This document shows positions 1,988 to 41,754 of a stretch of DNA of 64,000 bases, piece by piece. Under the pieces are notes generated by a model that saw only the letters and a list, made by a program, of their open reading frames with translations, searched no databases and had not been told where the DNA came from. Each line of letters starts with the position of its first letter. Position 1 is the first letter of the stretch. The stretch covers positions 3,367,960 to 3,431,959 of the forward strand of contig CBDCJA010000002.1 of assembly GCA_965217705.1 (NCBI GenBank). Direction: 5' to 3'. This DNA is from Dehalococcoidia bacterium. Lineage in GTDB: Bacteria > Chloroflexota > Dehalococcoidia > Lucifugimonadales > CATOSD01. The translations under genes and the position numbers were made by a program.

Positions 1988-2112
1988 AGTTTCCCCCTGG
2001 TGTGGAATCGGGCAGTGTCGGATGGGTAGCGATAACGTGAATGTGAGAATAGCGTTGAGGCTATGGGCTGTCAACTTGGGGGGCGGCACGTTCCGTTTAC
2101 CCGCCGAGCCCA

Positions 2113-2562
2113 ATGGTGCTACCATCTTGTTTGCGAAGGAGCCTCTGGTCAGTCCCTAACCGGCCCATTCTGGCTGCGTCTCGACATGGGCGACTGGAGG
2201 AGGGGAGACGCGAAAGGAGTTACAAAGTGCTTCACTGTACACCAACTTGCGAATATTCCACGGACGACCAGGGAAAGCAACACTTACGACGGGTTCGGAT
2301 CAAGATTTGGGACGACAGGGAGTACTTCGATCCCGCGGCTGTCCGTCGTCACGAGGAATATGAAGACATTGAGGAGGCTATCGAGCGGCTGGTTGAATTC
2401 GGCGACGAGCCAAGTTTCGACGCGAAATCTAGAATCAGTTCATCGATGCTTGCAAACCTGCTAATGAGATACAAGCGAACTGGTATCTTGCGTTCGGCAG
2501 AGGATCCCCCGAAAGTGGATCTTAAGGCAGCGTTCGATAGGCTGGCAAGGTCAAATATTTGA
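2113..2562 (+). CDS. Hypothetical protein in an AT-richer patch; start uncertain (a GTG near 2227 is possible)
   Basis: An ORF with ordinary, not Arg/Gly/Pro-skewed, composition. No motif recognised. Confidence 0.3.
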   Translation: MVLPSCLRRSLWSVPNRPILAASRHGRLEEGRRERSYKVLHCTPTCEYSTDDQGKQHLRRVRIKIWDDREYFDPAAVRRHEEYEDIEEAIERLVEFGDEPSFDAKSRISSSMLANLLMRYKRTGILRSAEDPPKVDLKAAFDRLARSNI

Positions 2563-2876
2563 TAGGCAAAGAGAGTGTGTCGGACACAGATAGACAGTTC
2601 CTTGTCGTGCGTGCTGCAACCACCGATGGCGGTGCCACCGACCACATCTACAGTCTGCGCGACGCCGCAAGCGCACCGGGAGAGACAAATGTCGACCTCG
2701 TCCTGGCCCACATCTGGGACGCTTTCACAGGGACAACGCCGTTCTTGAGGCTTGCGAATCCGGATGTCCTATACAATCCCGAACATGTAGTGCGAGTGGC
2801 CTTAGAAGTCATGTCAATTGAAGAGTCGGCAGAAGAATCTGAAGAAAGAGGACCGATTGGCTTCCGACCGCCATAA
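2559..2876 (+). CDS. Hypothetical acidic-tailed protein
   Basis: The ORF overlaps the upstream stop by 4 nt and has ordinary composition. No motif recognised. Confidence 0.3.
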   Translation: MIGKESVSDTDRQFLVVRAATTDGGATDHIYSLRDAASAPGETNVDLVLAHIWDAFTGTTPFLRLANPDVLYNPEHVVRVALEVMSIEESAEESEERGPIGFRPP

Positions 2877-2913
2877 GCGCCAGGCGCCCAGCCGCCACTT
2901 CCCCCAGCTCCGC

Positions 2914-5900
2914 CTACCCGCCCGCCAGCATCCGGCTTACCGCGTCCTCGACGGCGCGGCCCTCGTCGGACTCGCGCAGCCACGCCCGCAGCTCGCGGCG
3001 CACGATGGTGACGCCCACGCCGTCGCCGCGCTCCTCGCGCAGCGCCGCCAGCCGCGCACTCGCGCCTACCGCGGCCGCGGCCCCCGCCGCCGCGATGTCC
3101 GCGTGTAGCTCGTGCGATGCGTCGAACTCCGGTATCGGCAGCTTCCACAGGTGTTTTTGCAGGTCTCGCGCGCCGAACTGTCCCCTTGACATCAAGGGGT
3201 TTACGGCTGTCTCCAGCGCCACACTATTGATGATTGCGAGCAGGTAGTTGGCTTCGTGGACGTCCTTGCAGACAACCCAAAAGAGCTTGTAGTCGATAAC
3301 TGCTTGATCATTTTGAACGAGTGTAGCTGTAGGTCGGCCGGCCGACACGTACACTATTCTTGTTGGTCGCGTGCCCGAGTCACGTTGCCACATAAACTGC
3401 GACGTCAGCTTGCCCATGTAGTCGAGTTGCCCCACCAAGTCCAGCTTGTTGGCGCGGCCCTTCTTCTCCTCCCAGAGGCTGTTGACGGTCTGCCAGCGTC
3501 CGCGCATCCGGCGCTCCAATCCGGCCAGCGACACGCCGCCTGGTTCGCCAACTTGAACCGGTATGGCAGAGTCGCCCTGCTTGAGCGGCAACAGCGCCTT
3601 GAGCGGCTCAAGTGTCACGTAGGGAGCGACGGTCTCGCCGAGGTGGACGCTAAAGAGGTGGGTCTCCTCCACGGTCTGGCCGGTGATTGCTGTAAGGTCC
3701 AGGTTCTTCCAGGGCGCTTTGTCCTGGCTGCCCCGGCGGGGGTTGACGGTTGAGGTCCGCACCGCCTGCATGATGGCGGGGTTGTCGGTCTCGTTGACGA
3801 AGAACAGCGCCCGCGGAACAATGGTCGCGCCCTGGCGTGAGAGAGCGGCATAAGGCGAATCGCCCGTTACGCCCGTGTCGGTGATGGCCGCCGCGTCGCG
3901 CCGCACGTCCGCGGCGCCGGCGGCGCCGCGCCAGCGCTCCACCGAATCTGCAAGCGGCCTGGGGGCGGCCTCCGGCGGCATCCGCTCTGCGAACACGACC
4001 GAGGCCGGCACTGGGAAGAAGGTGTTGGGTTCCAGCCGTTCGAGGTCCCACGCCGCCTTTATGGTGAAGTCCGCCATTATGCCGGTGCCACTTCTGCCCG
4101 CTCGCCAGCGTCCGGAGCGCCACTTGGAGTACTGGCCGGCTTGGAGCGCGCTGTGGGGCATAACGAACCCGATTTTGCCGCCCTCACCGAGGTAGAGGTC
4201 CACGCTACGGGTGAAGAACAGCCCGGCCACGTCCTGGTGGGTGGCGTAGCGTCCGCCGGCCCAGATGCCGTAGCGGTCGCGGCTCAGCCGCTGCAGCTCG
4301 GTGCGCAGCACGTCCGCCGTCTGGTTGTAGTTGATCCAGGGCGGGTTGCCTATCACCACGTCCACCTTTTCGCGGGACAGCGCCACCGGGCGCACCATAT
4401 TGCGAGCGTAGTAGGCCCACACGTGGTCGCGGCCGCGGTCGTGGAGTTGCTTCAGGACGCCGATCGTCCTGCCCAGGGTCTCGCGCTCGGCGGGGTCGGT
4501 CACGTGGTTGTCGTCCAGGGCGAGTTGGGGGTCGTCCCCCTCCACGACGTAGAAGGAGACGTCCGCCATGAGCGCGTCGAAGCTCTCGGCGCGCTCGACC
4601 AGGCTGACCGGAAACACGAGCTCGGCGTGCTCCTCCTCCCTGGTCTGGATGGTTATCTCGTTCTCGTCCAGCAGGTCTCCGCTGCGGATGCGAAGCTGTA
4701 GGGCGTCGCCCAGGTAGACGGGGATGGACAGCGAGGCCTCGACCTGCGCGCTGGAGGCGGCGTCGATGGCGGGCCGGGCGGCCAGGGTCCAGGCGGTGCG
4801 GGCGAGCTGCACCGCCGCGGGGTGAACGTCGATGCCGGTCACGGCGTCGCGCAGCCGGTCCAGTATGCGCCAGGGGTCCCAGTTCGCCTCGCGCGCGGCG
4901 TCCACGAAGTGGGACACCGCCTCGGCCAGGAACGTGCCTGAGCCGCATGCGGGGTCGAGCACGCGCTGCTCGAGCGGCCTGTCCACCAGCTCGCGCGCCA
5001 TCGTCCGGGCCAGCCAGGCGGGGGTGTAGTACTCGCCGAGCTGCCGGCGCTCCTCCGGCGGTATTACCGTGACGTAGAGGGTGGAGGCCGTGTCCGGGGG
5101 CGCGCCGGTCCAGTTGAAGCGCGCCACGCGGCGGGCCAGCGTGCGCAGCATCGGATTGGCGCCGACCTCGTTGGGCCAGCTGAAGAAGTCCGATTCCAGC
5201 ACGCCGCGCAGTCCGGTCGAGTTGTAGAACTCCCTGCCGTCGAGCAGGTCGGCGGGGTCGGTCTCGGCGAGCCGCCGGATGTCGATGCCGAACGAGGCTT
5301 GCACCACCATGCTCAGGATGGCGCACAGGTAGGTGTGGCGAACGAACAGGTCGTCGATCGTCTCGTCACGGCCCGCGCCGGCGACCTCGCCGAGGGCCGT
5401 GCGCAGAAGCTGGCGCCACAGGTCCCGCTTGACCCGGATGGTGTCGAGGGAGGCGTGCCGCCTGTACAGCGTGGAGAGGGCGGCGAGGTCGCGCTGGTGG
5501 GGCGGGCTGTCCGGCCCGAAGTAGCGGGCCAGCCCCTTGGCGTCGGGCGCGACGTTGTCCAGCGAGAACAGGGCGTAGTCGCGCAGCCACTCGTAGAGAG
5601 GCAGCCACCCGGCCGGGTCGTCGAGCGTGAAGTAGTAGGGCGGCGCGAGCTGCGGGTCGGGGGCGCCGGGCCAGCGCAGCAGCCAGTGCCTGCCGTCGGT
5701 GAGCACGCCCATGCGCACCTTGCTCTGCCTGGCCGACTCCTCCAGGTAGCCGTCGAGCTGGCGGACGTACTCCGGGTCCGGGGCGGTCCTGCCGGGCGCG
5801 ATTCGGCGCTTGACCTCGATGAAGGTGTCCAGGGCGGTCAGGTCGACGGCCCGGCTGGAGCCGTGAGCCGGCGGGTTCTCCTCGACTATCTGGTTGCTGG

Positions 5901-6039
5901 CGGCAAGCTCGGTGGTGGTGAGGAAGGCGCGCACCGCGGTGGTGATGTTAGCTTCGGGTTCGCCGTTGTCATGGCGCCGCAGCACCTCTCGCGCCGCCTC
6001 TTGGTGCATGGGATGGTCGATGTCGATGTGGGTAGTCAC
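2914..6039 (-). CDS. Single-chain Type IIG/IIL restriction-modification enzyme: N-terminal PD-(D/E)xK nuclease, gamma-class N6-adenine methyltransferase and a C-terminal target-recognition region
   Basis: Nuclease-like motif AVDLTALDTFIEVKRR near the N-terminus; AdoMet motif VLDPACGSGTFL; catalytic motif VVIGNPPWINY. The maximal ORF extends to 6090; the GTG at 6039 or the ATG at 6012 are alternative starts. Confidence 0.8.
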   Translation of the reverse strand: MTTHIDIDHPMHQEAAREVLRRHDNGEPEANITTAVRAFLTTTELAASNQIVEENPPAHGSSRAVDLTALDTFIEVKRRIAPGRTAPDPEYVRQLDGYLEESARQSKVRMGVLTDGRHWLLRWPGAPDPQLAPPYYFTLDDPAGWLPLYEWLRDYALFSLDNVAPDAKGLARYFGPDSPPHQRDLAALSTLYRRHASLDTIRVKRDLWRQLLRTALGEVAGAGRDETIDDLFVRHTYLCAILSMVVQASFGIDIRRLAETDPADLLDGREFYNSTGLRGVLESDFFSWPNEVGANPMLRTLARRVARFNWTGAPPDTASTLYVTVIPPEERRQLGEYYTPAWLARTMARELVDRPLEQRVLDPACGSGTFLAEAVSHFVDAAREANWDPWRILDRLRDAVTGIDVHPAAVQLARTAWTLAARPAIDAASSAQVEASLSIPVYLGDALQLRIRSGDLLDENEITIQTREEEHAELVFPVSLVERAESFDALMADVSFYVVEGDDPQLALDDNHVTDPAERETLGRTIGVLKQLHDRGRDHVWAYYARNMVRPVALSREKVDVVIGNPPWINYNQTADVLRTELQRLSRDRYGIWAGGRYATHQDVAGLFFTRSVDLYLGEGGKIGFVMPHSALQAGQYSKWRSGRWRAGRSGTGIMADFTIKAAWDLERLEPNTFFPVPASVVFAERMPPEAAPRPLADSVERWRGAAGAADVRRDAAAITDTGVTGDSPYAALSRQGATIVPRALFFVNETDNPAIMQAVRTSTVNPRRGSQDKAPWKNLDLTAITGQTVEETHLFSVHLGETVAPYVTLEPLKALLPLKQGDSAIPVQVGEPGGVSLAGLERRMRGRWQTVNSLWEEKKGRANKLDLVGQLDYMGKLTSQFMWQRDSGTRPTRIVYVSAGRPTATLVQNDQAVIDYKLFWVVCKDVHEANYLLAIINSVALETAVNPLMSRGQFGARDLQKHLWKLPIPEFDASHELHADIAAAGAAAAVGASARLAALREERGDGVGVTIVRRELRAWLRESDEGRAVEDAVSRMLAGG

Positions 6040-6127
6040 GTTCGCGCCCGGCTTTCCGCATGAGTGAGCTAGGCGGGCATTGTATCGCAATGCTGGCCCG
6101 CGCGGGGGCGAGGGTGAATCCCCGACC

Positions 6128-6499
6128 CTATCGGTTGGCGCGTATGGCTACGCGGCCCCCGCGTTCGACGTCGATGGTGAGGTTGTGTCCGTCCAGCAAG
6201 GCCATACCGATGAGGGGCGTAACGCCGGTGATGTCGGCGTCGATGTTTCTCGGCCGTCCATCCCAGAGCGCCGAGACGTTATGGACGTCAAAGTTCGCCT
6301 GCTCGCCGTTGGCCAAGAATGCGTAGCCTACGGTGGCAAAGGGAAGCTCCAACTCGGCTACCAGAGACTGCGGCAAGGTCAAGAAGCCGTTGTAGCCGGT
6401 GTCCACTACGGCTTGGATTTCTCGCGTCTGCCCGGCCGGGCCATGTATGGGGAGGGTCACCACTGCTTCATGCCTGGCATTGACCCGTCCCTCGATCAA
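6128..6499 (-). CDS. Retropepsin-like (clan AA) aspartic protease
   Basis: AVVDTGYNGFLTLP contains the DTG catalytic motif. The 123-aa size is typical of bacterial and archaeal mini-retropepsins. Confidence 0.75.
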   Translation of the reverse strand: MIEGRVNARHEAVVTLPIHGPAGQTREIQAVVDTGYNGFLTLPQSLVAELELPFATVGYAFLANGEQANFDVHNVSALWDGRPRNIDADITGVTPLIGMALLDGHNLTIDVERGGRVAIRANR

Positions 6500-6813
6500 T
6501 CGGTCCTCCGCAGGGAGCCGGCCCCAAAGCTGCGCAGTGCGCGGTATCCGACCTTCTCGGCCAGCACGTTGACAGCTTCCGGGCGCTTCGCGCGCAGGCG
6601 CTCTGATGCCGCTGCGGCGTTTTCGCCCAAAGCCCAGAGGCCGGTGTCCACATCTATGGCAACAATCTCGCCGACATGGTCGGACTCGACGAGGCGGCGG
6701 ATGTCGCGGTCATACATCTCCTTGCCCAGGCGCACCGTTTCGTCGCGCGGCAGTCGCTCAGGCATGGGGACGTCGCTACCATACATGGACGTAGTGGCTT
6801 TCGCGTTTCTCAT
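6496..6813 (-). CDS. Small partner protein upstream of the retropepsin-like protease
   Basis: A GGGAGGA Shine-Dalgarno lies upstream of the ATG at 6813. There is a 4-nt overlap with the protease gene. No catalytic motif recognised. Confidence 0.55.
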   Translation of the reverse strand: MRNAKATTSMYGSDVPMPERLPRDETVRLGKEMYDRDIRRLVESDHVGEIVAIDVDTGLWALGENAAAASERLRAKRPEAVNVLAEKVGYRALRSFGAGSLRRTD

Positions 6814-6922
6814 GATGCGTCCTCCCTGTCCGGCGCACGCCCGCATTGGTGTCAGCCTACCATTTCTCGGAGGAACGGGGCAACGGCAGAGGCTCTGCCC
6901 TTACACCACGCCCTCACCCTAA

Positions 6923-6944
6923 CCCTCTCCCTCGAGGGAGAGGG
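6923..6944. repeat. 22-nt perfect palindrome CCCTCTCCCTCGAGGGAGAGGG (REP-like hairpin) just downstream of the comM stop
   Basis: Read directly from the sequence. It sits between the protease pair and the comM remnant. Confidence 0.6.
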
Positions 6945-7489: not shown

Positions 7490-9060
7490 TCAATTGCAGC
7501 CAATTTCTGACTCCCGATGGTCAAAGTTATTTGGACGCAGTTGTCGCGATCGATTGTCACACTGTCTACAATGAGTCGCAACGCATCCTTGCGCTTCTGC
7601 GGGCTTAGTTCCTCAAGGCTGCTGCTTACCGTACTGGCCCACTGTCCAACTTTCCGCATGAGGAGTCGCTTCTCAGCGACAACGGATTGCATAGCGCGAT
7701 ATCCTTCCAGTCTGGTCTGGTAATGATTCAGTCGCTGGGTAATGAACTTTCGCTGTCGATCAAGTTGGTTCTCGGTAATCTTGCCCGAGACGAACAGCCT
7801 TATGGCCCTATCTTCCTCCAACTGAACGTTCCGCATCTCAAGCTCAGCCTTAGCGACTTCCTCAGCCAAGTGGGTATCATCCTGAGCGTGCATCGCGCCG
7901 ATGCCAACCGCTATAACTTCGGGGTTCTGAACAACCTTCTTGACCTCAGCCCAGACCAAGTCTTCCAGCCGTTCCGCTCTTATGAAGGGGTGCGCTCGGC
8001 AGCGGAACAGACGCTTCTGCATTCCGTAACACTGATAGTAGCGCCGGGGAGGGTCTAAATCGTAGTAATATACCTTTCCGTTGCGCCTTACCGTATTCTG
8101 CCTTGTTGCCCGTCCTCCCATAAGCATCCCACACTCTACGCACCGCACAAGATGCTGCAACATATAGAATACCTTAGTGTTCCGCTTGGCTCGGCTCTTT
8201 CTAAGCTTCTTGATGTCTTGCACCTTGTCCCAAGTCTCCTTAGCCACGAGCGGCGGGAATGGGACTTCTATCCAGGTATCCTTTGGCTGATCGTATATCA
8301 TCCTGCCTTCTTCAGTCGTAACCTGGCGGGTCCTGCCGTACCACCAAGTACCCTTGTAGGCCTCATTCCGCAAAATGCGATGGACATGCGACTCATGCCA
8401 TCGCTTGCTGCCGGGCCTTCCCGTCGGAACCTCGTCATCAATCAGGTGGCGGACAATCAACGGGATTCCGATCCCTTCGTGCGCATACTGATTGTAGATG
8501 CGTTGCACGATCGCTGCCTCAGCTTCTAATATGGCGGGCTTGCCGTCATCTCCGATTCGGTATCCGTATGGAATTCCATTGGACGGTATGCGGCCCTGCT
8601 TTGCCGAGCCGCGCTTGCCCATGGAAGCACGCTCGCGGAAGTTGTCGAGCTCGATCTTGCCGATGGCCGCCATGAGTCCGAAGGTCTTCATGTCGATGGA
8701 GTCCATGACGGCTTCGAGATTGATCTGGTGGGCCTCGATGACCTCCATGAGGACGGCGGCGGGGTACATGCCCCGGCTGAGGCGGTCGGACTTCCAGCAG
8801 ACGATGGTGTCGAAGCGTCCTTCCCTGGCGTCGGCGAGCATTCTCTGGAATTCTGGGCGCTTCTTGGACCAGCCCTTGCCCACCTCCTTGTAGCGGGCGA
8901 CGATAGTCAAGCCTCTGCGTTCGCAGTAGGACTCCATTTCGGCCACCTGCTCTACGATGGAGGTCTTCTCCTCCGTGTCCTGGCTCTGGTCTGACACACG
9001 GGCGTAGATGGCCGCTCGGTTCGCTTCTTTCCTCTTACTTCTCAACTTGACCTCCGGCAT
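7456..9060 (-). CDS. Large serine recombinase (integrase of the element)
   Basis: AAIYARVSDQSQD holds the resolvase-type catalytic serine. Also present are FDTIVCWKSDRLSRG, a recombinase domain, the zinc-ribbon CVECGMLMGG...YYQCYG and a coiled-coil tail. A GAGGGGG SD precedes the ATG at 9060. The gene is AT-richer than its surroundings. Confidence 0.9.
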   Translation of the reverse strand: MPEVKLRSKRKEANRAAIYARVSDQSQDTEEKTSIVEQVAEMESYCERRGLTIVARYKEVGKGWSKKRPEFQRMLADAREGRFDTIVCWKSDRLSRGMYPAAVLMEVIEAHQINLEAVMDSIDMKTFGLMAAIGKIELDNFRERASMGKRGSAKQGRIPSNGIPYGYRIGDDGKPAILEAEAAIVQRIYNQYAHEGIGIPLIVRHLIDDEVPTGRPGSKRWHESHVHRILRNEAYKGTWWYGRTRQVTTEEGRMIYDQPKDTWIEVPFPPLVAKETWDKVQDIKKLRKSRAKRNTKVFYMLQHLVRCVECGMLMGGRATRQNTVRRNGKVYYYDLDPPRRYYQCYGMQKRLFRCRAHPFIRAERLEDLVWAEVKKVVQNPEVIAVGIGAMHAQDDTHLAEEVAKAELEMRNVQLEEDRAIRLFVSGKITENQLDRQRKFITQRLNHYQTRLEGYRAMQSVVAEKRLLMRKVGQWASTVSSSLEELSPQKRKDALRLIVDSVTIDRDNCVQITLTIGSQKLAAIDPPPTSCSWRP

Positions 9061-9540
9061 ATGCTGCCCCCTCTCTCGAAAACAAAAGACCCACCTCCTG
9101 TCGGGAGCGGGCCTGCGAGTGGTACAATAGGTCCGCACTGCCTGGTCCCTCCAGGTGGCGCCACGGCCCGGGGTGTTGTCAGCACCGCCGGGTCAACTTT
9201 CGTTCCAATGATACCGTGATTGGCGGGTTGGCGTCAAAGAGAAGCGTCTGCTGGTGGGCACGCCCGACTTGGAGCGCGAGCGGCTGTTCATGATGTCGAA
9301 CGACGCGCCTTCGTCGGGATGATACTACACATCCAGGAGGACCTCGAGCTTTGCGCCACGGTGGTTGACCTACACTGTGGGAATGTCTGTCAAAGACAGT
9401 TGGCCGACCCGTCGACCTACATGAAGATTCTGTGAAAGAGTCACCTGAGGTGAAGGCTGCTTCCCGACACGCAAAGGAACGAGTTAGGCTTCATCACCAG
9501 GCCTGCTGCTAGTAAGTGTTGCGGCGTTCAGCGCTCTCTT

Positions 9541-9762
9541 TCAGTCTTCAAGTTGCCTCTCGCATTCGCTGGCAAACCCTTGGTCTCCGGTGGGCGGCGG
9601 GGCCTGACGTTGCGCGGCCGCTTGTTCGAGCAGCAAGGTGAAGAGGCGGCGCAGCCGGTCCTGGGCGTCCGGTGCGGGGTTGCAGTTGATCGCCACCACG
9701 CGGAGCTCGCCAGGGGCTCTGTCGCCAATGTTCGATTCTGGTCGGCTCTTGGCTTCTCTCAA
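9541..9762 (-). CDS. Hypothetical small protein (weak call)
   Basis: An ORF only, with moderately ordinary composition (…RVVAINCNPAPDAQDRLRRLFTLLLEQ…). Confidence 0.2.
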   Translation of the reverse strand: MREAKSRPESNIGDRAPGELRVVAINCNPAPDAQDRLRRLFTLLLEQAAAQRQAPPPTGDQGFASECERQLED

Positions 9763-34758: not shown

Positions 34759-34960
34759 ACGTACCGCCGCCGCGCCTCCGCGGACACACCGCACGATATA
34801 CGGCTCGCACCGGGCCGCGGACGCAGGTCCCGCCCCCGGCGGACTCTGCGCCAAATCAAGCATACGCCGTGGGCGTTGCCGGTACGCGGACCCCCCGGTG
34901 GGGTGCAGTCCGGGTACCGGCTTCGTCCTCCGGCTGACAACGAAGGGAGGATTACACGAC

Positions 34961-35186
34961 ATGAACCTCGGAGACTTCATCGACAGGTTCAAGGACTCCA
35001 TAGCGCAGCGGGTGGTCGAGTCCTACCCGCCGCTGTACAGGCGTTCGGAGAACGGTGGGAAGCTGCCCCGCCTGCTCCGCAGGCCCCTGGGGGCGCAGGC
35101 CGACGCCATCAGGGGCGCCGCTCTTTCGCTGGCGGCACACCGGGGCACGACGGTGGTGGGAGAGATGGGCACCGGCAAGACCTTCA
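34961..35186 (+). CDS. SNF2/DEAD-like helicase, exon 1, ending inside the Walker A region
   Basis: MNLGDFIDRF...TVVGEMGTGKTF then GTGCG (the intron 5' end). GGGAGGA SD upstream. Confidence 0.8.
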
Positions 35187-35661
35187 GTGCGCCGCGTAAC
35201 GCGGCATAGGATACCCGGCTCAGTCGGGAAGAACTCGGAGAAAGTTCTTGGGCCAACCGACCCACCTCGAAGCGAAAGCCTAGGGGGAAAGCAGCATGTC
35301 GGTAAAGCGGCTACAGTCCCAAAGCGTTGTAGGACTGGTTCCGCAAGGCCCGCGCGATACGGTGAAAGCTTGATTGCCTGAACCCCAGTTCCCAGTTGGT
35401 GTTCTTGCCACCCGCCGGTAGAACGCTTGTAACCCGGCGCCACTCATTGCCTCGGTACGATGAAGGTACCAATGCAACTCCGATGAGTGGACGATGACCG
35501 ATGCGGTCTATTCAAGGGAACGAACGGGGCACCTACAGTCGCGCTAGAACGTCCTATGTCAACGGAACGCGGGATGGCCTACGGGGGGAGACCCCTATGG
35601 TCACGGAGTCCTCATAGTAGCCCGAGCCGGGGAAAGCCCGGCACATGGCGAAGGAGGACAG

Positions 35662-37470
35662 GTGTCAACGACGAACAAACACAGAGAGGTATGCAGAATG
35701 CAAAACGCCGAAACTGTACTGAACGTCATACGCGAACGCGGAGAACGAGGATTGCCGCTGGAGAACATCTATCGGCTGCTGTACAACCGGAACCTTTACC
35801 TGCGGGCCTACGGGCGTATCTACTCAAATCAGGGGGCTACGACCAAAGGCGTCACCGCAGAGACCATGGACGGTATGTCACTGGCGAAAATCGACCGCAT
35901 CATCGAAGCCCTGCGCTACGAGCGGTTCCGATGGACGCCGGTGCGACGGGTCCACATTCCCAAGCCTAACGGCAAGACCCGCGCCTTGGGCATACCAACG
36001 GGGCCGGACAAGCTGCTGCAAGAGGTCATCCGGATGATTCTGGAAGCCTACTACGAGCCGCAGTTTTCCGACCGCTCCCACGGCTTTCGGCCTAACCGGG
36101 GGTGCCACACCGCCCTAGGCAACGTGACCACCCACTGGACCGGTGTCCGCTGGTTCGCCGAGGGAGACATCAAAGGGTGCTTCGACAACATCGACCACGA
36201 TGTCCTGTTGTCGGTGCTCGGCGAGAAGCTCCACGACAACCGATTCCTACGCCTGCTCAAGTACCTACTGAAGGCAGGTTACATCGAGGATTGGAAGTAT
36301 GGCCGCACGCTGAGCGGGACACCGCAAGGCGGCATCGTCAGCCCAATCCTCGCCAACGTTTACCTAGACCGGTTGGACAAGTTTGTCGAGAACGTGCTGA
36401 TACCAGCCCACACCCGTGGCTCAGACCGGAGAGACAACCGCGAGTACACACGTTTGCTGAACCAAGCGGCCCGCCAGAGGAAGCGGGGGAACCACGCCGA
36501 GGCACTGCAACTGCGCAAGCAAATGCAACAACTGCCGTCACGTGACCCCTACGACCCCGGCTACCGCCGGTTACGGTACGTGCGCTATGCGGACGACTTC
36601 GTGCTGGGTTTCATCGGGCCAAAGGTCGAAGCCCAACAGGTGAAAGAGTCCTTGGAGACGTTCCTGCGCGACACACTCAAGCTGGAGCTATCCAGGGAGA
36701 AAACTCTCATAACCCACGCCACCAGCCAGGCGGCGCGGTTCCTCGGCTACGAACTCGTGAACCAACAGGCCAACGACCAGTTTGACCGCAATGGTCGGCG
36801 CAGGGTCAACGGCCAAATCGGATTGCGGGTTCCCGCCAACGTCATCGAACAACACTGCCAAGCCTACATGCGCAAAGGCAAACCGGCACACCGCAGTTAC
36901 CTACTCCACGATGAAGATTTCTCCATCATGGCACAGTACCAGTCGGAGTTCCGGGGCGTCGTCAACTACTACCTTCTGGCCTACAACGTCTCCTATTTCG
37001 GGCGACTGCAATCGGTCATGGAGATGTCTTTGGCACGGACCCTTGCGGCAAAGCACAAGTCCACCGCACGGAAGATGCGACGCCAGTACAAGAGCGTCGT
37101 GGAAACCGAGCACGGGCCGCGTGCCTGTCTCAAGGTCGTCAAGCAGCAGGACAACGGCAAACGCCCTAAAGTGGCGTACTTCGGTGGCATACCCCTGAAA
37201 CGGCAACGGCAGGCAGTTCTCATAGACCAACAGCCTCAACGGTACAGGGCTGGCCGCAACGAGCTTATCAAACGGCTCGAAGCGGACGAGTGCGAGATGT
37301 GCGGGTCGGCAGTGGACGTAGAAGTTCACCACATCCGCGCACTTCGCGACCTGAACGTGAAAGGCCAACGGGAAAAGCTCAAGTGGGTTCAAATCATGGC
37401 GGCGCGAAAACGCAAGACCCTCGCGGTCTGCCGGACGTGTCACATGAACATCCACCACGGGCGAAAGTAA
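35662..37470 (+). CDS. Group II intron-encoded protein: reverse transcriptase, maturase and HNH endonuclease
   Basis: RT motifs (GIPTGPDKLLQ, FAEGDIKGCFDNIDH, GTPQGGIVSPILAN, RYADDFVLG), an X domain, and C-terminal CEMCGS...VHHI...CRTCHMNIHHG. The ATG at 35691 or 35698 are alternative starts. Confidence 0.9.
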   Translation: MSTTNKHREVCRMQNAETVLNVIRERGERGLPLENIYRLLYNRNLYLRAYGRIYSNQGATTKGVTAETMDGMSLAKIDRIIEALRYERFRWTPVRRVHIPKPNGKTRALGIPTGPDKLLQEVIRMILEAYYEPQFSDRSHGFRPNRGCHTALGNVTTHWTGVRWFAEGDIKGCFDNIDHDVLLSVLGEKLHDNRFLRLLKYLLKAGYIEDWKYGRTLSGTPQGGIVSPILANVYLDRLDKFVENVLIPAHTRGSDRRDNREYTRLLNQAARQRKRGNHAEALQLRKQMQQLPSRDPYDPGYRRLRYVRYADDFVLGFIGPKVEAQQVKESLETFLRDTLKLELSREKTLITHATSQAARFLGYELVNQQANDQFDRNGRRRVNGQIGLRVPANVIEQHCQAYMRKGKPAHRSYLLHDEDFSIMAQYQSEFRGVVNYYLLAYNVSYFGRLQSVMEMSLARTLAAKHKSTARKMRRQYKSVVETEHGPRACLKVVKQQDNGKRPKVAYFGGIPLKRQRQAVLIDQQPQRYRAGRNELIKRLEADECEMCGSAVDVEVHHIRALRDLNVKGQREKLKWVQIMAARKRKTLAVCRTCHMNIHHGRK

Positions 37471-37590
37471 TCCGCACAAGCAGAAGTAGGTAGTGTCAGC
37501 ACTCCAATCGAATACGATTCTTCGCCGCCACTTCCTTCATGGCATGGTAAAATCACAGCCACCACCGATCCAGTTGAGAGGAGGCTGACC

Positions 37591-38298
37591 GTGCCTAACC
37601 CACGTGGGATCATACTAGGGTTCGACCCCGGCGGTCGGGGCAAATTCGGTTGGAGCGTATGCGAAACGACGGGTGGTCAATTGCTCTCACCCGCACTTAC
37701 CGGCTTGGCCAACGACGCCTGGCACGCCATGGACCAGGTGCAAAAGGCTCTGCCAGATAACCTACCCGTCCTTGCCGCGGGCATTGATGCCCCGCTGTTC
37801 TGGAGTAAGACGGGAGACCGAACAGTTGACATCGTGCTCCGACAGGCGTTGAGGGACACTAAGTTCCCTGCGTCCAAGTTGGGAGGTACGGTTCAGACTA
37901 CAAATAGCTTACAGGGGGCATGCGTCGTACAGGGACTGTTGTTGGCTAAGTACCTCAGCGAAACCCGCTGGGGCTTGACAATAACGGAGTCCCACCCCAG
38001 GGCTTTGTGCCACCTGCTCCATCACATGGGGCAACAGGACATGATAAAGCGCCTAACGGCAGGATTGGCTGACTATTCCCAGTACGCCACCCGCTGCTTG
38101 TGCGGATGCGAAGAGGCCGAAAAGCCCCCAGCAAACTTGGCAGACCATAAACGGGACGCCATACTATCCGCAATTTCAGCATGGGCGGCCACTTCCCAAC
38201 CCCTGACCGCATGGCAAAACCTCTACGATGAGAACAAGGATCCTCATCGAATCATGCCTTTTGATATACCCATCAGCTACTGGATGCCAATCCCGTAA
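37591..38298 (+). CDS. DUF429-like / RNase H-fold predicted nuclease, encoded inside the intron between the IEP (intron-encoded protein) gene and domain V
   Basis: GAGAGGAGG SD 8 nt before the GTG. Motifs ILGFDPGG, AAGIDAPLFW, ITESHPRA and HKRDAILSAISAWAA follow the D / D / E-x-H-P / D pattern I associate with DUF429. Confidence 0.65.
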   Translation: MPNPRGIILGFDPGGRGKFGWSVCETTGGQLLSPALTGLANDAWHAMDQVQKALPDNLPVLAAGIDAPLFWSKTGDRTVDIVLRQALRDTKFPASKLGGTVQTTNSLQGACVVQGLLLAKYLSETRWGLTITESHPRALCHLLHHMGQQDMIKRLTAGLADYSQYATRCLCGCEEAEKPPANLADHKRDAILSAISAWAATSQPLTAWQNLYDENKDPHRIMPFDIPISYWMPIP

Positions 38299-38404
38299 GC
38301 ACCCCACGTTGCTAGGCCAACCCGCCTACTGCGCAGCACAAATTCACGTGGCATCCTTCGATGCTGCGCTTCATCCCCCACTACCTACACATAACGACAC
38401 TGGA

Positions 38405-38438
38405 GAGCCGGATGCGGTGAAAGCCGCACGTCCGGTTC
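38405..38438 (+). ncRNA. Group II intron domain V
   Basis: GAGCCGGATGCGGTGAAAGCCGCACGTCCGGTTC is a 34-nt hairpin with the canonical GAGC...GTTC ends and a GAAA loop. Confidence 0.85.
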
Positions 38439-38501
38439 GGAGGGGGGCCGACGGAAAAGTGCTCCGGTAACACGGGGTAACTCGCCGGCGGCCTACCCTA
38501 C

Positions 38502-40132
38502 TCGGCGCGGCCGCGGCGTACATGGCTGGATTCAGGCGGGTTCTCGTGCTCTGCCCGCCGCATCTCGTGGCCAAGTGGAAAAGAGAGGTGGAGATGACGG
38601 TGCCCGGCGCCCGCGCCGCCGTGGTCGAGTCCGTCACCGACCTGGAGCGGCTCAGGTTCTCCATAGGCCCAGGCCCGCTGTTCGCGGTGATGAGTCGGGA
38701 GAAGGCCAAGCTGTCCTACCGCTGGAAGGCCGCCGTCATCCAGCGGTGGGCTGTATCCAGTGGTGGGCTCGTCAGGATGGAGGAGACGGGGGAGCCCTTC
38801 CGGGTCCCCTGCTGTCCGGATTGCACGGCCCAAGTCGTGGACAGGGACGGCATTCCGCTCACGGAGAAGGACCTGAACCGCCGCAAGCACACCTGCGCCG
38901 CCTGCGACGCCCCCCTGTGGCAGGCCGACAGGTCCGGGCCGAAACGCTATCCTCTCGCCGACTACGTCAAGCACCACATGCGGGGCTTCTTCGACCTGCT
39001 GATCGGGGACGAAGTTCACGAGTTCAAGGGGCGCGGCTCGGCCCAGGGCATCGCCGCGGGCATCCTCGCCGACGCCTGCGGCAGGTCCCTCAGCCTGACC
39101 GGGACCCTCTTGGGCGGCTATGCGAGCACCATTTTCCATCTGCTCTACAGGTTCAGCCCGGAGATCAGGACGGAGTTCGGGCGCTCGGAAGAGCGCCGCT
39201 GGATACAGCGGTACGGCTTCGAGGAGGTCACCGTCGGCAAGCCCGACGACGACGCGGTGGAGGACGGCAGGTACAGCCGCAGGCGCAAGTACCGCAAGAC
39301 GGTCAGGGAGAGGCCGGGCCTCGTGCCCAGCGCGCTCTTCCACATCATCGGGAACACGGTGTTCCTGCGGCTCTCCGACGTGGCCTCGGGCCTCCCCGAA
39401 TACACCGAGCAGGTGATGCTGTCCTCGATGGACGCGGAGGAGGACGCCACGGGCTACTCCCAGCGCAGCGCCTACAACCACGTGTTCGACGAACTGCGCA
39501 AGGAGCTGGCGGAGGCCCTCAAGTCCGGCTCCAAGCGGCTGCTCGCCACCTACCTGCAAACATTGTTGGCCTACCCGGACGGCTGCACCAGGGGGGAGAC
39601 GGTCTTCGACCCCAGGACGGGCGACGTCATCGTTCAGGTGCCGCCCCTGTCCGAAGAGAATCTCTACCCCAAGGAAAAAGCCCTGGTGGACCTGGTGGCC
39701 GCCGAGCGGCTTGAGGGAAGGCGCGTGCTAGTCTACGTCACCCACACGGGCACCAGGGACGTGACGGGGCGTATGGATGACATCCTCACCCGGCACGGGT
39801 TCCGGGTGGCGGTGATGAAGGCCAACGCGGTGGCCCCAAACCGCAGGGAGAAGTGGGTGGCCGACAAGGTGAAGCACGGCATAGACGTGCTCATCTGCCA
39901 CCCGCGGTTGGTGCAGACCGGCCTCGACCTGATCGACTTCCCAACCATCGTCTGGGACGAGGTAGAGTTCTCCGTCTTCCAATCGACACAAAAAAGTACG
40001 GTTCTCATGGGCGGTCGAATTGGATGCTACCGGAGTCGAATAGGTGCGGCTCCGGTCGCTACTCCGCACCCTCGGCGGCCTCTGGAAGCATCACTTCTAT
40101 GCCGCCGGGAACAGAATAGGCCAGCCGCATGA
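38502..40132 (+). CDS. SNF2/DEAD-like helicase, exon 2; the C-terminus appears truncated or replaced after about 39975
   Basis: VLVLCPPHLVAKWKRE, a zinc-ribbon insert CPDCT...CAACD, DEVHEFKG, and motifs IV-V (VLVYVTH, VLICHPRLVQTGLDL). No motif VI (Q..GR..R.GQ) follows. The last ~50 codons are AT-richer, unrelated sequence. Confidence 0.75.
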
Positions 40133-40325
40133 TGTGCCAGACCTCCCCGCCAGTCGGGATCGTCCCCTCACGCCATGCCGTCACGCGGTCGATCCCGACG
40201 CCGAGGCGCTCCGCGAACTCCTCCCTTGTCAGCCCTACGAGCTCTATGAGCCTCTCCAGCCGCTCTGGATAGTCCTTCGGGAAGAGCTCCCGGTAAGAGC
40301 CCTCTGTCCGCTCACGTGAGTCCAT
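40059..40325 (-). CDS. Small HTH protein, type B (paralog of 11679..12029)
   Basis: See the alignment under 11679..12029. Confidence 0.6.
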   Translation of the reverse strand: MDSRERTEGSYRELFPKDYPERLERLIELVGLTREEFAERLGVGIDRVTAWREGTIPTGGEVWHIMRLAYSVPGGIEVMLPEAAEGAE

Positions 40326-40570
40326 AGTCCCACCTCCTCCTTCTGTGGACCCGTATCAGGCCCTCATTCGGCAGCGTCCCCAAGACCCTCCGAAACCCGC
40401 ATGGCCTATTTTACCAGTAACGGCATGGCTGCCGCCGTTCGCCGTTCCGCCATCCTGCCGGTACTTTCAACTGCTTGGGATCACCCCCTCGTAGGAGGCC
40501 CCCTCCTCCGGATAGAAGACTTTACGAACGGTGTGTTCTCCGCAGCCACAGCCCACACGATGTGGGGACT

Positions 40571-41737
40571 TCAGTCCAGCGGGAGCGGCAGCCGTATCCA
40601 CAGCGGCAGGTGGTCGCTCACCTTGTGCTCGAACCGAGGCACGAGGGCGGACCTCTCTCTGGACGACAGATCCCTGTACGGACGGCCCAGCAGGGCCTCG
40701 CTGAACAGGTCGCCGAACTCGAACACCCCGTAGTCCGGCCCTCTGGCCTCGGTGCCCATTACCGCATTGTCCATGTAGGTCGGCAGACGCGAATCCCGGT
40801 TGAACAGGCCAATCTGGTCGAAGGTCTCCGTAAGCCGCGCGTTGGTGCGGAAGATGTCATCCCGGCCCGGATGCACGTCCAGGAAGGGGAAGTTGACGTT
40901 GGCCCCATCCAACTCCCCGTTCAGCGACTTGATTCGCTCCTCTATCCGCCCCCGGTCCCTGGCGGGATTGTCGTAGTCCAGGTTGAGGTCGCCCAGCAGC
41001 ATGAAATTCGGGTAGTAGGCATGGCTCTGGGTCCTGAACCGGCTCATGATCCAGTCGACCAGGGCATTGAACTCCTGGCGCCGGTCGTCGATGTAGTTCC
41101 CGAAGTACAGGTGGGCGTTGACGGCCATGAGCTCATACGGCCGGGTGCCGGGATGCCCGGGTATACGGAACGCCACGCAGAAAGGCTGGCGTATGAAGGA
41201 CAGGAAGACGCTCAGCTTGAGCCTCGGCTTGGTCTTGCGCCTTCCCGACCGGTAGTCCGCAAGCCTCTTCGAGTAAGGTCCCAGGTCGTCGACAAACGCC
41301 TCGTAGTTGCCGGCGATGGAGTCGATGACCTTGGTCCGGTCGTAGGTGACGTCGCTGGCGACCTCCATCCGTTCCACCGTATTCCAGCGGTAGATGAATC
41401 CGAGCCGCTCACCCAGTCCCGGCTCGCCGGGGAACACCCCCGTCTGGTCCGAGACCACCATGCTGAACTCCGGCCCAAGCAGGGACATCAACCGCCGCAG
41501 GCCGCTGAGGTCGTCCATTATCTCCTGAACGGCCAGCAGGTCGAAGCTGCGGCAGACATCGGCCAGGAACTCCCAGGTGTCGGAATTGCGGCTCCGGGAA
41601 GATCCCAACTTTCGTATGTTGAAGGACCCCAGGAGCACCGAGCCGTACTCCCTCTGCGGCAGACCGTACCGCCGTGGGTCTTCGTCCAGTCGAGCCCTGA
41701 TCAGTTTCCAGTCGGCTGATGTGAATTGCCTGGCCAT
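40571..41737 (-). CDS. Endonuclease/exonuclease/phosphatase (EEP, DNase I-like) family protein
   Basis: LLAVQEI, AVNAHLYFG, LLGDLNLD and the terminal KVSDHLPLW are EEP catalytic motifs. No signal peptide is evident. The ATG at 41737 has a GGAGGA SD; the maximal ORF extends to 41749. Confidence 0.85.
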   Translation of the reverse strand: MARQFTSADWKLIRARLDEDPRRYGLPQREYGSVLLGSFNIRKLGSSRSRNSDTWEFLADVCRSFDLLAVQEIMDDLSGLRRLMSLLGPEFSMVVSDQTGVFPGEPGLGERLGFIYRWNTVERMEVASDVTYDRTKVIDSIAGNYEAFVDDLGPYSKRLADYRSGRRKTKPRLKLSVFLSFIRQPFCVAFRIPGHPGTRPYELMAVNAHLYFGNYIDDRRQEFNALVDWIMSRFRTQSHAYYPNFMLLGDLNLDYDNPARDRGRIEERIKSLNGELDGANVNFPFLDVHPGRDDIFRTNARLTETFDQIGLFNRDSRLPTYMDNAVMGTEARGPDYGVFEFGDLFSEALLGRPYRDLSSRERSALVPRFEHKVSDHLPLWIRLPLPLD

Positions 41738-41754
41738 GCTGTCCTCCATTCAAG

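Follow-up and report, generated by a model that had tools for sequence, protein, structure and literature searches.

Group II introns are seen as minimal retroelements, consisting of one ribozyme and one protein. The variants catalogued in the 2015 review by Zimmerly and Semper comprise En-minus introns (those without the endonuclease, En, of the intron-encoded protein, IEP), introns with a degenerate IEP, LAGLIDADG-only introns, introns lacking any open reading frame (ORF-less), twintrons and introns with altered splice sites; in none of them is the IEP accompanied by another, unrelated gene (PMC4424553). Here we describe such an arrangement in a 64,000-nt stretch of DNA (hereafter, the window) from a Dehalococcoidia bacterium (contig CBDCJA010000002.1, positions 3,367,960 to 3,431,959), where a group II intron almost certainly holds, inside its domain IV, a cargo module with a gene (ORF2) for a protein of nuclease fold. 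A preliminary description of the locus was not aware of any bacterial group II intron described with an RNase H-fold passenger; our search of the full-text literature likewise found no natural group II intron with a cargo of this kind described, although its coverage is incomplete and absence from it is no proof.

Retroviruses, long terminal repeat (LTR) retrotransposons and some non-LTR retrotransposons are elements that reverse-transcribe RNA and carry an RNase H-fold enzyme. Unlike in those elements, where an enzyme of RNase H1 type is fused to the reverse transcriptase (RT), the gene described here is separate, and its predicted product appears to belong with the RuvC/YqgF-like clade. Similar, too, are the engineered targetrons (Ll.LtrB, EcI5), in which a foreign gene of up to ~1 kb is likewise placed in domain IV of an IEP-dependent retromobile intron, and in which the structure at the base of the insert affects activity (PMC3898094), comparable to the closing stem found here. 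Unlike in these laboratory constructs, the cargo is natural and recurrent, is under purifying selection, always comes from one family, sits beside the resident IEP and has an evolved, covarying stem at its base. The LAGLIDADG group II introns of fungal mitochondrial rRNA genes and of Thiomargarita namibiensis also carry a gene for a non-RT nuclease (PMC4424553). There, the ORF replaces the RT, whereas here it lies beside an intact RT/maturase/En, with the exception of one IEP-less relative (L006, below), and the fold of the cargo protein is predicted to be RNase H-like.

The intron and the insert in its domain IV

The intron occupies positions 35187-38501 of the window (3315 nt, plus strand; 5' GTGCG ... 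CCCTAC 3') and interrupts a ResIII/SNF2-like helicase gene, whose 5' exon (34941-35186, plus strand) ends at the Walker A sequence ...GEMGTGKTF and whose 3' exon runs from 38502 to 40132 on the same strand. Domain V (38405-38438, 34 nt, plus strand) has an AGC triad, a GAAA loop and an AC bulge, with 14/14 pairs formed in a separate domain V scan; it is followed by domain VI and a 3' AY, as expected of a group II intron. The Rfam model Intron_gpII (RF00029, domains V-VI) matches 38403-38501 at 67.5 bits (gathering score 40; E 4e-11), and the segment 3' of domain V in this alignment (38439-38501, plus strand) is >93% identical in the related loci L015, L026 and L029. At the 5' end, GTGCG at 35187 agrees with GUGYG, and the exon-binding site 1 (EBS1) TGAAG (35461-35465), part of the loop GATGAAG (35459-35465, plus strand) within a GGTAC/GTACC hairpin of domain I, is complementary to the intron-binding site 1 (IBS1) CTTCA at 35182-35186. 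Joining position 35186 to 38502 restores the open frame (...GEMGTGKTF followed by IGAAAAYMAGFRRVLVLCPPHLVAKWKRE; ...GTGKTF followed by IGAAAAYMAGFRRVLVLCPP) and connects motif I with motif Ia of a ResIII-type helicase; only at 38501/38502 is the joining in frame, and the spliced host protein matches Pfam ResIII. The Rfam match, the EBS1-IBS1 pairing and the in-frame junction thus bear out the domain V and intron boundaries first proposed for this locus.

The IEP (35662-37470, plus strand) combines reverse transcriptase, maturase and HNH endonuclease, with the YADD motif present. Its matches to Pfam RVT_1 (1.4e-30), Intron_maturas2 (4e-12) and AI2M-like_HNH (9e-14) are all above the cut-offs, and its match to NCBIfam TIGR04416 (2.8e-82, 276.7 bits) is under the 300-bit cut-off of that model. 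The Rfam model group-II-D1D4-1 gives a weak, below-threshold match at 35577-35656 (23.9 bits). Intron DNA is 84-97% identical to the copies in L001, L009, L088, L089 and L026, and the intron with its cargo has a G+C content of 55-60%, lower than the 68-72% of the host DNA on either side; the window as a whole averages 65.5%. Judged by these features, 35187-38501 is an intact group II intron, predicted to be self-splicing and retromobile, and the in-frame exon junction together with the copies at several cognate sites (below) is an indirect sign of splicing and retrohoming. A twintron was considered and rejected, since 35100-38600 contains a single domain V even at E <= 1. Folding of a mini-intron by minimum free energy gave no credible basal helix for domain IV. 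A second IEP, 81% identical to the first, is present on the window's own 3.43-Mb contig (P0363), and the host genome therefore probably carries several copies of the intron.

Between the IEP stop codon (37470) and domain V (38405) lie 934 nt (37471-38404), a gap that had been put at ~930 nt and called unusual for a group II intron. This it is: the corresponding distance is 9 and 28 nt in the cargo-less introns L088 and L089, whose IEPs are ~91% and 88% identical to that of the window, and ~15-35 nt between IEP end and domain V in seven more distant relatives on viral contigs, which gives 9-35 nt across the nine passenger-less relatives. The difference is a cargo insert of 905 nt in the 3' part of domain IV (37485-38389, plus strand), absent from L088 and L089, that begins 14 nt past the IEP stop codon and ends 15 nt ahead of domain V. 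Specifically, the L089 junction reads ...TAATCCGCAAACGCAGA^CATAAACCACTG-GAGAGCC, and that of the window ...TAATCCGCACAAGCAGA[A-GTAGGTAGTG ... CACTACCTAC-A]CATAACGACACTG-GAGAGCC, with the insert in brackets.

In this comparison of junctions, both ends of the insert coincide exactly with the perfect 10-bp inverted repeat that the preliminary description had placed there, GTAGGTAGTG at 37486-37495 and CACTACCTAC at 38379-38388 (plus strand). By our estimate, ~6 perfect 10-mer inverted repeats are expected by chance in 3.5 kb, and what makes this one meaningful is its placement at the exact ends of the insert and its covariation, not its perfection alone. In partition-function folds of the whole 870-940-nt segment from five cargo-bearing introns, which among them have three arm sequences, the insert ends pair at a probability of 0.77-1.00 per pair (window, L001, L009, L026 and L015), with values of 0.95-1.00 for the window arms. 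Relative to the window group, the arms of L026 (GTAGGTAA/TTACCTAC) show a G-C to A-U exchange, and those of L015 (CCGTCGAT/ATCGACGG) have an unrelated sequence at the equal position and are still complementary. In a covariation test that comprised four distinct sequences, with the arm register set by hand, 87.5% of cells were paired and 7/10 pairs were altered on both sides, a result as high being reached in 0/500 shuffles; slid controls gave 25-57% paired. Hence, the inverted repeat is, on the strength of its covariation, an RNA stem that closes off the insert, as had been suggested for it, and a covarying long-range stem at the base of the insert would make the cargo module a separate arm off domain IV. 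The IEP stop codon (TAG) of L001, L009 and L015 is provided by the 5' arm of this stem. Even with the threshold relaxed to E <= 1, the insert gives no match to a further Rfam family.

A further complementarity involves the same stretch of domain IV. The 14 nt at 37470-37483 (ATCCGCACAAGCAG, just past the IEP stop) are perfectly complementary to 38094-38107 inside ORF2, where ~0.02 such matches are expected by chance. The ATCCGCACAAGCAG segment is also kept in cargo-less introns, and its partner, which encodes R-C-L-C-G-C, is identical in the free-standing ORF2 copies L004 and L005. No pairing of the two segments is predicted, and the complementarity is not kept in L009; it could be due to chance or be a relic of the capture event.

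The cargo gene, its protein family and its relatives

ORF2 (37591-38298, plus strand, GTG start) encodes a DUF429-like protein of 235 aa with a predicted RNase H fold, a putative nuclease. The 235-codon frame, the strong Shine-Dalgarno (SD) sequence and the four peptide motifs reported for it are present in the sequence and its translation. The SD sequence, GAGAGGAGG (37576-37584, plus strand), lies 6 nt ahead of the GTG start, and a GGAGG-type ribosome-binding element is kept ahead of the ORF in relatives. Upstream, an extended -10-like box, TGGTAAAAT (37545-37553, plus strand), is a candidate promoter of the cargo gene, and a box of this type stands at a similar distance in most copies (TGATAAAAT in L001, TGGTACAAT in L009, TAGTACAAT in L026, TCGTACAAT in L029 and TGGTATACT in L170). 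A consensus promoter/terminator scan in which a -35 hexamer is required did not call the -10-like box and found no plus-strand terminator. In L026, a 21-nt tandem duplication in the ORF2 leader (TAGTACAATCCACACACTCCA twice, 4432-4500) includes the -10-like box. Downstream of the gene is a hairpin of 9 bp with a 4-nt loop, CGTGGCATC-CTTC-GATGCTGCG (38347-38368, plus strand; arms 38347-38355 and 38360-38368), in which three pairs show compensatory changes in an RNAalifold analysis of 10 copies and the pair probability is 0.91-0.98. An 8-bp hairpin, GCGCAGCA/TGCTGCGC, had been reported at this place; its complementarity exists, at 38331-38338 and 38362-38369 and not from 38326, but we reject it as a structure, since it is not conserved, has a probability of 0.01 and competes with the conserved 9-bp hairpin.

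Homologues of ORF2 make up 481 clusters in a 90%-identity database and 472 representatives in a 50%-identity library, and the family is evidently real but rare. In a 55-member alignment, D12, E133, H135 and D189 are invariant and D66 occurs in at least 90% of sequences, the conserved residues falling in the motifs GFDPGG, GIDAP, TExHP and RDA; all five residues are intact in 13/13 copies checked. The ratio of nonsynonymous to synonymous substitution rates (dN/dS) among ORF2 copies is 0.16-0.29, in the same range as that of the IEP (0.21-0.32), which indicates that ORF2 is under purifying selection. The possibility, raised at the outset, that the frame might have neither homologues nor a coding signal is dispelled by the hundreds of homologues and by this selection.

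The assignment to DUF429 fits the relatives better than the window protein itself. Against Pfam DUF429 (PF04250), the latter scores 17.7 bits (E 0.0031), under the 23-bit gathering threshold, whereas 42/55 ORF2 relatives match at E <= 0.01 (best, 1.7e-8); ORF2 is therefore best called a divergent DUF429-like branch. As to the fold, the AlphaFold model of ORF2 is confident (pLDDT 92.5, pTM 0.91). Foldseek searches of the PDB and of viral structures gave no match at E <= 0.001, and the weak top matches (best at E 0.012-0.045, TM <= 0.4) are all of RNase H-like fold: terminase nucleases, RuvC, Tex/YqgF, RNase H and the Hsp70 nucleotide-binding domain. With hhalign, only the first beta-hairpin of ORF2 aligns with E. 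coli RuvC (IILGIDPG; E 5e-4, probability 32%), and profile comparison showed no resemblance to RNase HI, the RuvC and RNase HI reference sequences having been entered by hand. ORF2 is thus, to judge by its motifs, similar to the RuvC/YqgF-type members of the fold and not to RNase H1, so that the original description of an RNase H-fold protein would hold for the fold as a whole and not for the RNase H1 type. This agrees with Majorek et al., who assigned DUF429 to the RuvC/YqgF/terminase clade (PMC3985635).

With DUF429 proteins such as RnhD (MSMEG_5849), ORF2 shares a distant sequence kinship, a predicted RNase H-like fold and conserved acidic residues (PMC3985635). Unlike them, the window protein consists of one domain, with neither RelA/SpoT nor NUDIX as a partner, and falls below the Pfam cut-off; further, DUF429 genes have been described as unlikely to be mobile, whereas the ORF2 branch rides a retroelement. 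A PDB sequence search with the family profile returned no meaningful match, ORF2 has no PADLOC, PHROGs or NCBIfam matches, and neither Pfam nor NCBIfam matches it to a known homing endonuclease family (LAGLIDADG, GIY-YIG, HNH, His-Cys or PD-(D/E)xK), the HNH domain of the locus being in the IEP.

We sampled the ORF2 family at ~160 loci across GTDB genomes and Joint Genome Institute (JGI) metagenomes. Most of the GTDB loci are from Dehalococcoidia and other Chloroflexota, and the JGI metagenome scan returned solely distant free-standing relatives. At ~150 of the ~160 loci there is no RT or domain V nearby, and this mostly free-standing family points to capture of the intron gene from the cell. 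Related introns, which the preliminary description had proposed to look for, occur both with and without the passenger, and the architecture is therefore a recurring one within a lineage of Dehalococcoidia introns and not a one-off. Full introns with cargo were found in L001, at the helicase site shared with the window (IEP 92% and ORF2 85% identical to the window), and at other sites in L009 (copy L009a; 79% and 85%), L026 (76-77% and 43-51%) and L015 (59% and 50%). In L006, a 1.44-kb intron (5489-6927) has lost the IEP and retains ORF2, 72% identical to that of the window, as its sole ORF; this intron is intergenic, and its EBS1 loop does not match its own 5' flank. Like the ORF-less bacterial introns that related IEPs serve in trans (PMC4424553), it has no IEP, and its metagenome also has full-length relatives; unlike them, it keeps the DUF429-like gene. 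The remaining intron-associated copies are remnants that keep ORF2: L029 and L172/L173 have lost the 5' part and kept domains V-VI, L008 has a damaged domain V, and L007/L010 are cut at domain V. Overall, domains V-VI lie downstream of ORF2 in eight independent loci.

Several of these loci have features of their own. In L009, from one Dehalococcoidia metagenome-assembled genome, a distance of 2.3 kb separates two introns of the lineage (2093-5413 and 7677-9705). The first has cargo. The second, which runs into the end of the locus and is incomplete there, has the same 5' exon as the window intron and is its ortholog. The L171 (594-5226) and L172 (4501-9349) regions hold free-standing or remnant ORF2 copies among defence and mobile-element genes, one copy adjoining an OLD-TOPRIM ATPase and a UvrD helicase (a Gabija-like pair) and insertion sequence (IS) fragments, the other a Hen1-like methyltransferase and a TnpB gene. 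In L026, the region 3 kb downstream (8047-8907) encodes another reverse transcriptase, which is unrelated and 33% identical to the IEP. The cargo-less intron of L089 (2428-4990) has as its 5' exon codons ~1-12 of the helicase (window ~34977-34996) and as its 3' exon the region of ~aa 250 of the same helicase (KGRGSAQGIAAGILAD), which looks like a deletion between two intron copies in a single gene. As a representative of the window's insertion site L089 was rejected, since its rearranged exons place it elsewhere in the same gene, and it is valid solely as a cargo-less junction reference.

Movement, history and possible role of the cargo

In six copies, the EBS1 loop changes together with the 5' exon. 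The EBS1/IBS1 pairs of full-length copies are TGAAG/CTTCA, CGTCG/CGACG, TGACG/CGTCA and GTGGG/CCCAC, and the cargo-less introns match too, with CGTCT/GGACG in L089 and, in L088, the same TGAAG/CTTCA as in the window. Cargo of one kind, in the same intron position, occurs at no fewer than four genomic insertion sites. Since cargo-bearing introns at distinct sites have an EBS1 that matches their own 5' exon, the intron must have moved while carrying the gene, and these pairings indicate that a natural intron has travelled with its ORF2 cargo.

In a neighbour-joining tree of ORF2, computed without support values, two Dehalococcoidia clades contain the intron-borne copies, and a small number of free-standing copies is nested in each of them. 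The histories of IEP and ORF2 are incongruent: the L026 proteins differ from those of the window far more in ORF2 (51% identical) than in the IEP (76% identical), and between the window and L001 the synonymous divergence (dS) is 0.46 for ORF2 versus 0.18 for the IEP. Both ORF2 clades have the -10 region in common, and likewise the module's 3' non-coding portion, with CTAGG..., the hairpin and the ACCTAC arm. The simplest reading of these patterns is one old capture, followed by exchange of the module among multicopy introns, repeated loss and, occasionally, survival in dead remnants; repeated capture of ORF2 is a possible alternative.

What the cargo does can be hypothesized from its relatives and from the biology of retrohoming. 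The explanation that we favour, taken whole, adds to the anatomy a service of ORF2 to the intron; it is plausible, though we would stop short of calling it probable. Its functional part, drawn by analogy and correspondingly tentative, is that ORF2 is an accessory nuclease with a role in retromobility. The protein would act late in retrohoming, either by removing the intron RNA from the RNA/cDNA hybrid, an RNase H step that is absent from the IEP and that for Ll.LtrB is supplied by E. coli RnhA, or by cutting the branched DNA intermediate. An RNase H domain is missing from group II RTs. Ll.LtrB retrohoming proceeds via a branched DNA intermediate and, when rnhA is deleted in E. coli, drops to 11-15% (PMC3636086). 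The one DUF429 protein studied, M. smegmatis RnhD, acted as an RNase H in vitro when assayed at full length (PMC5224475; PMC4429107); together, an RT without RNase H, this dependence on rnhA and the activity of RnhD favour the role of accessory nuclease. Further, cargo above ~1 kb strongly lowers targetron mobility (PMC3898094), and the retention of a 905-nt cargo, near the size that limits mobility, implies a benefit. That every cargo of the lineage comes from one family, despite 43-87% identity, and is kept although cargo is costly in engineered introns, suggests that the protein serves the intron. It is doubtful, but conceivable, that this lineage is the first among group II introns to bring along a nuclease of RNase H fold for retrohoming intermediates and, with it, to be freed from the RNase H of the host.

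Several observations weigh against this explanation. On the side of the protein, there are the sub-threshold DUF429 score of the window copy, the weakness of its best structural matches and its likeness to RuvC and not RNase H1, on account of which the substrate could be DNA; on the side of the anatomy, there are the few sequences and the hand-set register of the covariation test. Both loci that were sampled via the IEP (L088 and L089) are cargo-less, and the close IEP relatives form >120 protein clusters (at least 78% identity), versus ~20 close ORF2 clusters, so that most sampled introns of the lineage are without cargo, which would make it dispensable. Intact ORF2 also occurs in dead intron remnants and in the free-standing L004, L170 and L171, and such persistence outside live introns would agree with an advantage for the cell, or for the gene itself, and not just for the intron. 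Finally, a nuclease acting in trans would aid cargo-less introns too, which weakens the selection for linkage.

Among the alternatives, the one that survives best, while unlikely, is that domain IV acquired a copy of a cellular gene together with its promoter, for instance through template switching of the RT or through recombination, and that the gene is either beneficial to the host or tolerated. The host might gain an additional, or a mobile, version of an enzyme that processes nucleic acids; alternatively, the closing stem might make the gene harmless. Neither strikes us as likely. A passenger of this kind would account for the ~150 of ~160 family loci without an intron nearby, for the cargo's own promoter-like and SD signals, for the intact ORF2 in IEP-less or truncated introns and in free-standing copies nested in the intron clade, and for the many cargo-less introns of the lineage. 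Random capture should, however, yield assorted genes, whereas all cargoes of the lineage are of one family across up to 57% protein divergence, with a dN/dS in ORF2 as low as that in the IEP, and engineered cargo costs mobility, yet cargo-bearing introns sit at the four or more cognate sites described above.

LAGLIDADG genes spread by homing in group I introns and in some group II introns. A comparable spread of ORF2, as a selfish cassette whose RuvC-like protein cuts cargo-less introns or other sites and is copied along with the module by repair, seems to us rather improbable. To our knowledge, no homing endonuclease family has the fold of ORF2, which counts against it. The identical insertion point in divergent introns, combined with the disagreement between IEP and ORF2 histories, speaks for such spread, but the incongruence is explained equally well by recombination or template switching among multicopy introns. 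The unit of promoter, ORF and short tail does recur in unrelated, mobile-element-rich contexts (L170, L171 and L004), and the taxonomic distribution of the ORF2 family is patchy, although Majorek et al. judged the contexts of DUF429 genes to be conserved and their mobility unlikely (PMC3985635).

Very improbable is an insertion sequence of 905 bp, bounded by 10-bp terminal inverted repeats and encoding a small transposase of RNase H fold (DDE-like). The size, the terminal repeat and the single RNase H-like ORF with acidic residues would fit the generic layout of an IS; we rejected it because the repeats come without a target-site duplication at the junction, and the repeat-bounded unit is confined to one intron position in domain IV, none of 183 loci having a repeat-bounded insert with the same ends and flanking duplications at a non-intron site. 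Free-standing copies have no such repeats, homology stopping ~29 nt past the stop codon, no transposase family matches, and the arms of L015 are wholly different yet complementary, as an RNA stem predicts. A mis-annotation, with the intron ending ahead of the ORF or the ORF being a chance frame, has a negligible probability and was rejected, its sole weak encouragement, the sub-threshold Pfam score, being set against domains V-VI downstream of ORF2 in eight loci, the single in-frame exon junction and hundreds of homologues under purifying selection.

Genomic surroundings and implications

Around the intron-bearing gene, the window has further features. Directly upstream of the helicase gene, as in L001, 33463-34758 (plus strand) encodes a 431-aa protein with four tandem HTH_3 domains. 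The tail of the helicase ORF near 40000-40132 is odd and of low complexity; past it, the minus strand has an 88-aa helix-turn-helix (HTH)-like ORF (40059-40325) and a 392-aa ORF of the Exo_endo_phos family (40571-41749). The G+C content falls to ~62% in 39990-41749, where a further insertion may be present or the host gene may have been truncated.

For group II introns, the arrangement described here has consequences at several levels. Natural group II introns can, as these loci indicate, pick up and move cellular genes, which makes them possible vehicles of gene transfer. The closing stem would represent an evolved way to insulate a cargo of ~0.9 kb in domain IV, and may be useful for targetron design. 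Further, the intron provides an initial biological entry point to an uncharacterised branch of DUF429-like proteins, and it allows the possible gain of an RNase H-fold activity, as a separate gene, to be tested in a retroelement. Should ORF2 indeed have a role in retromobility, its acquisition would have a parallel in LTR and non-LTR retroelements, which took up RNase H separately, and would reveal how group II introns can come by new protein functions in nature.

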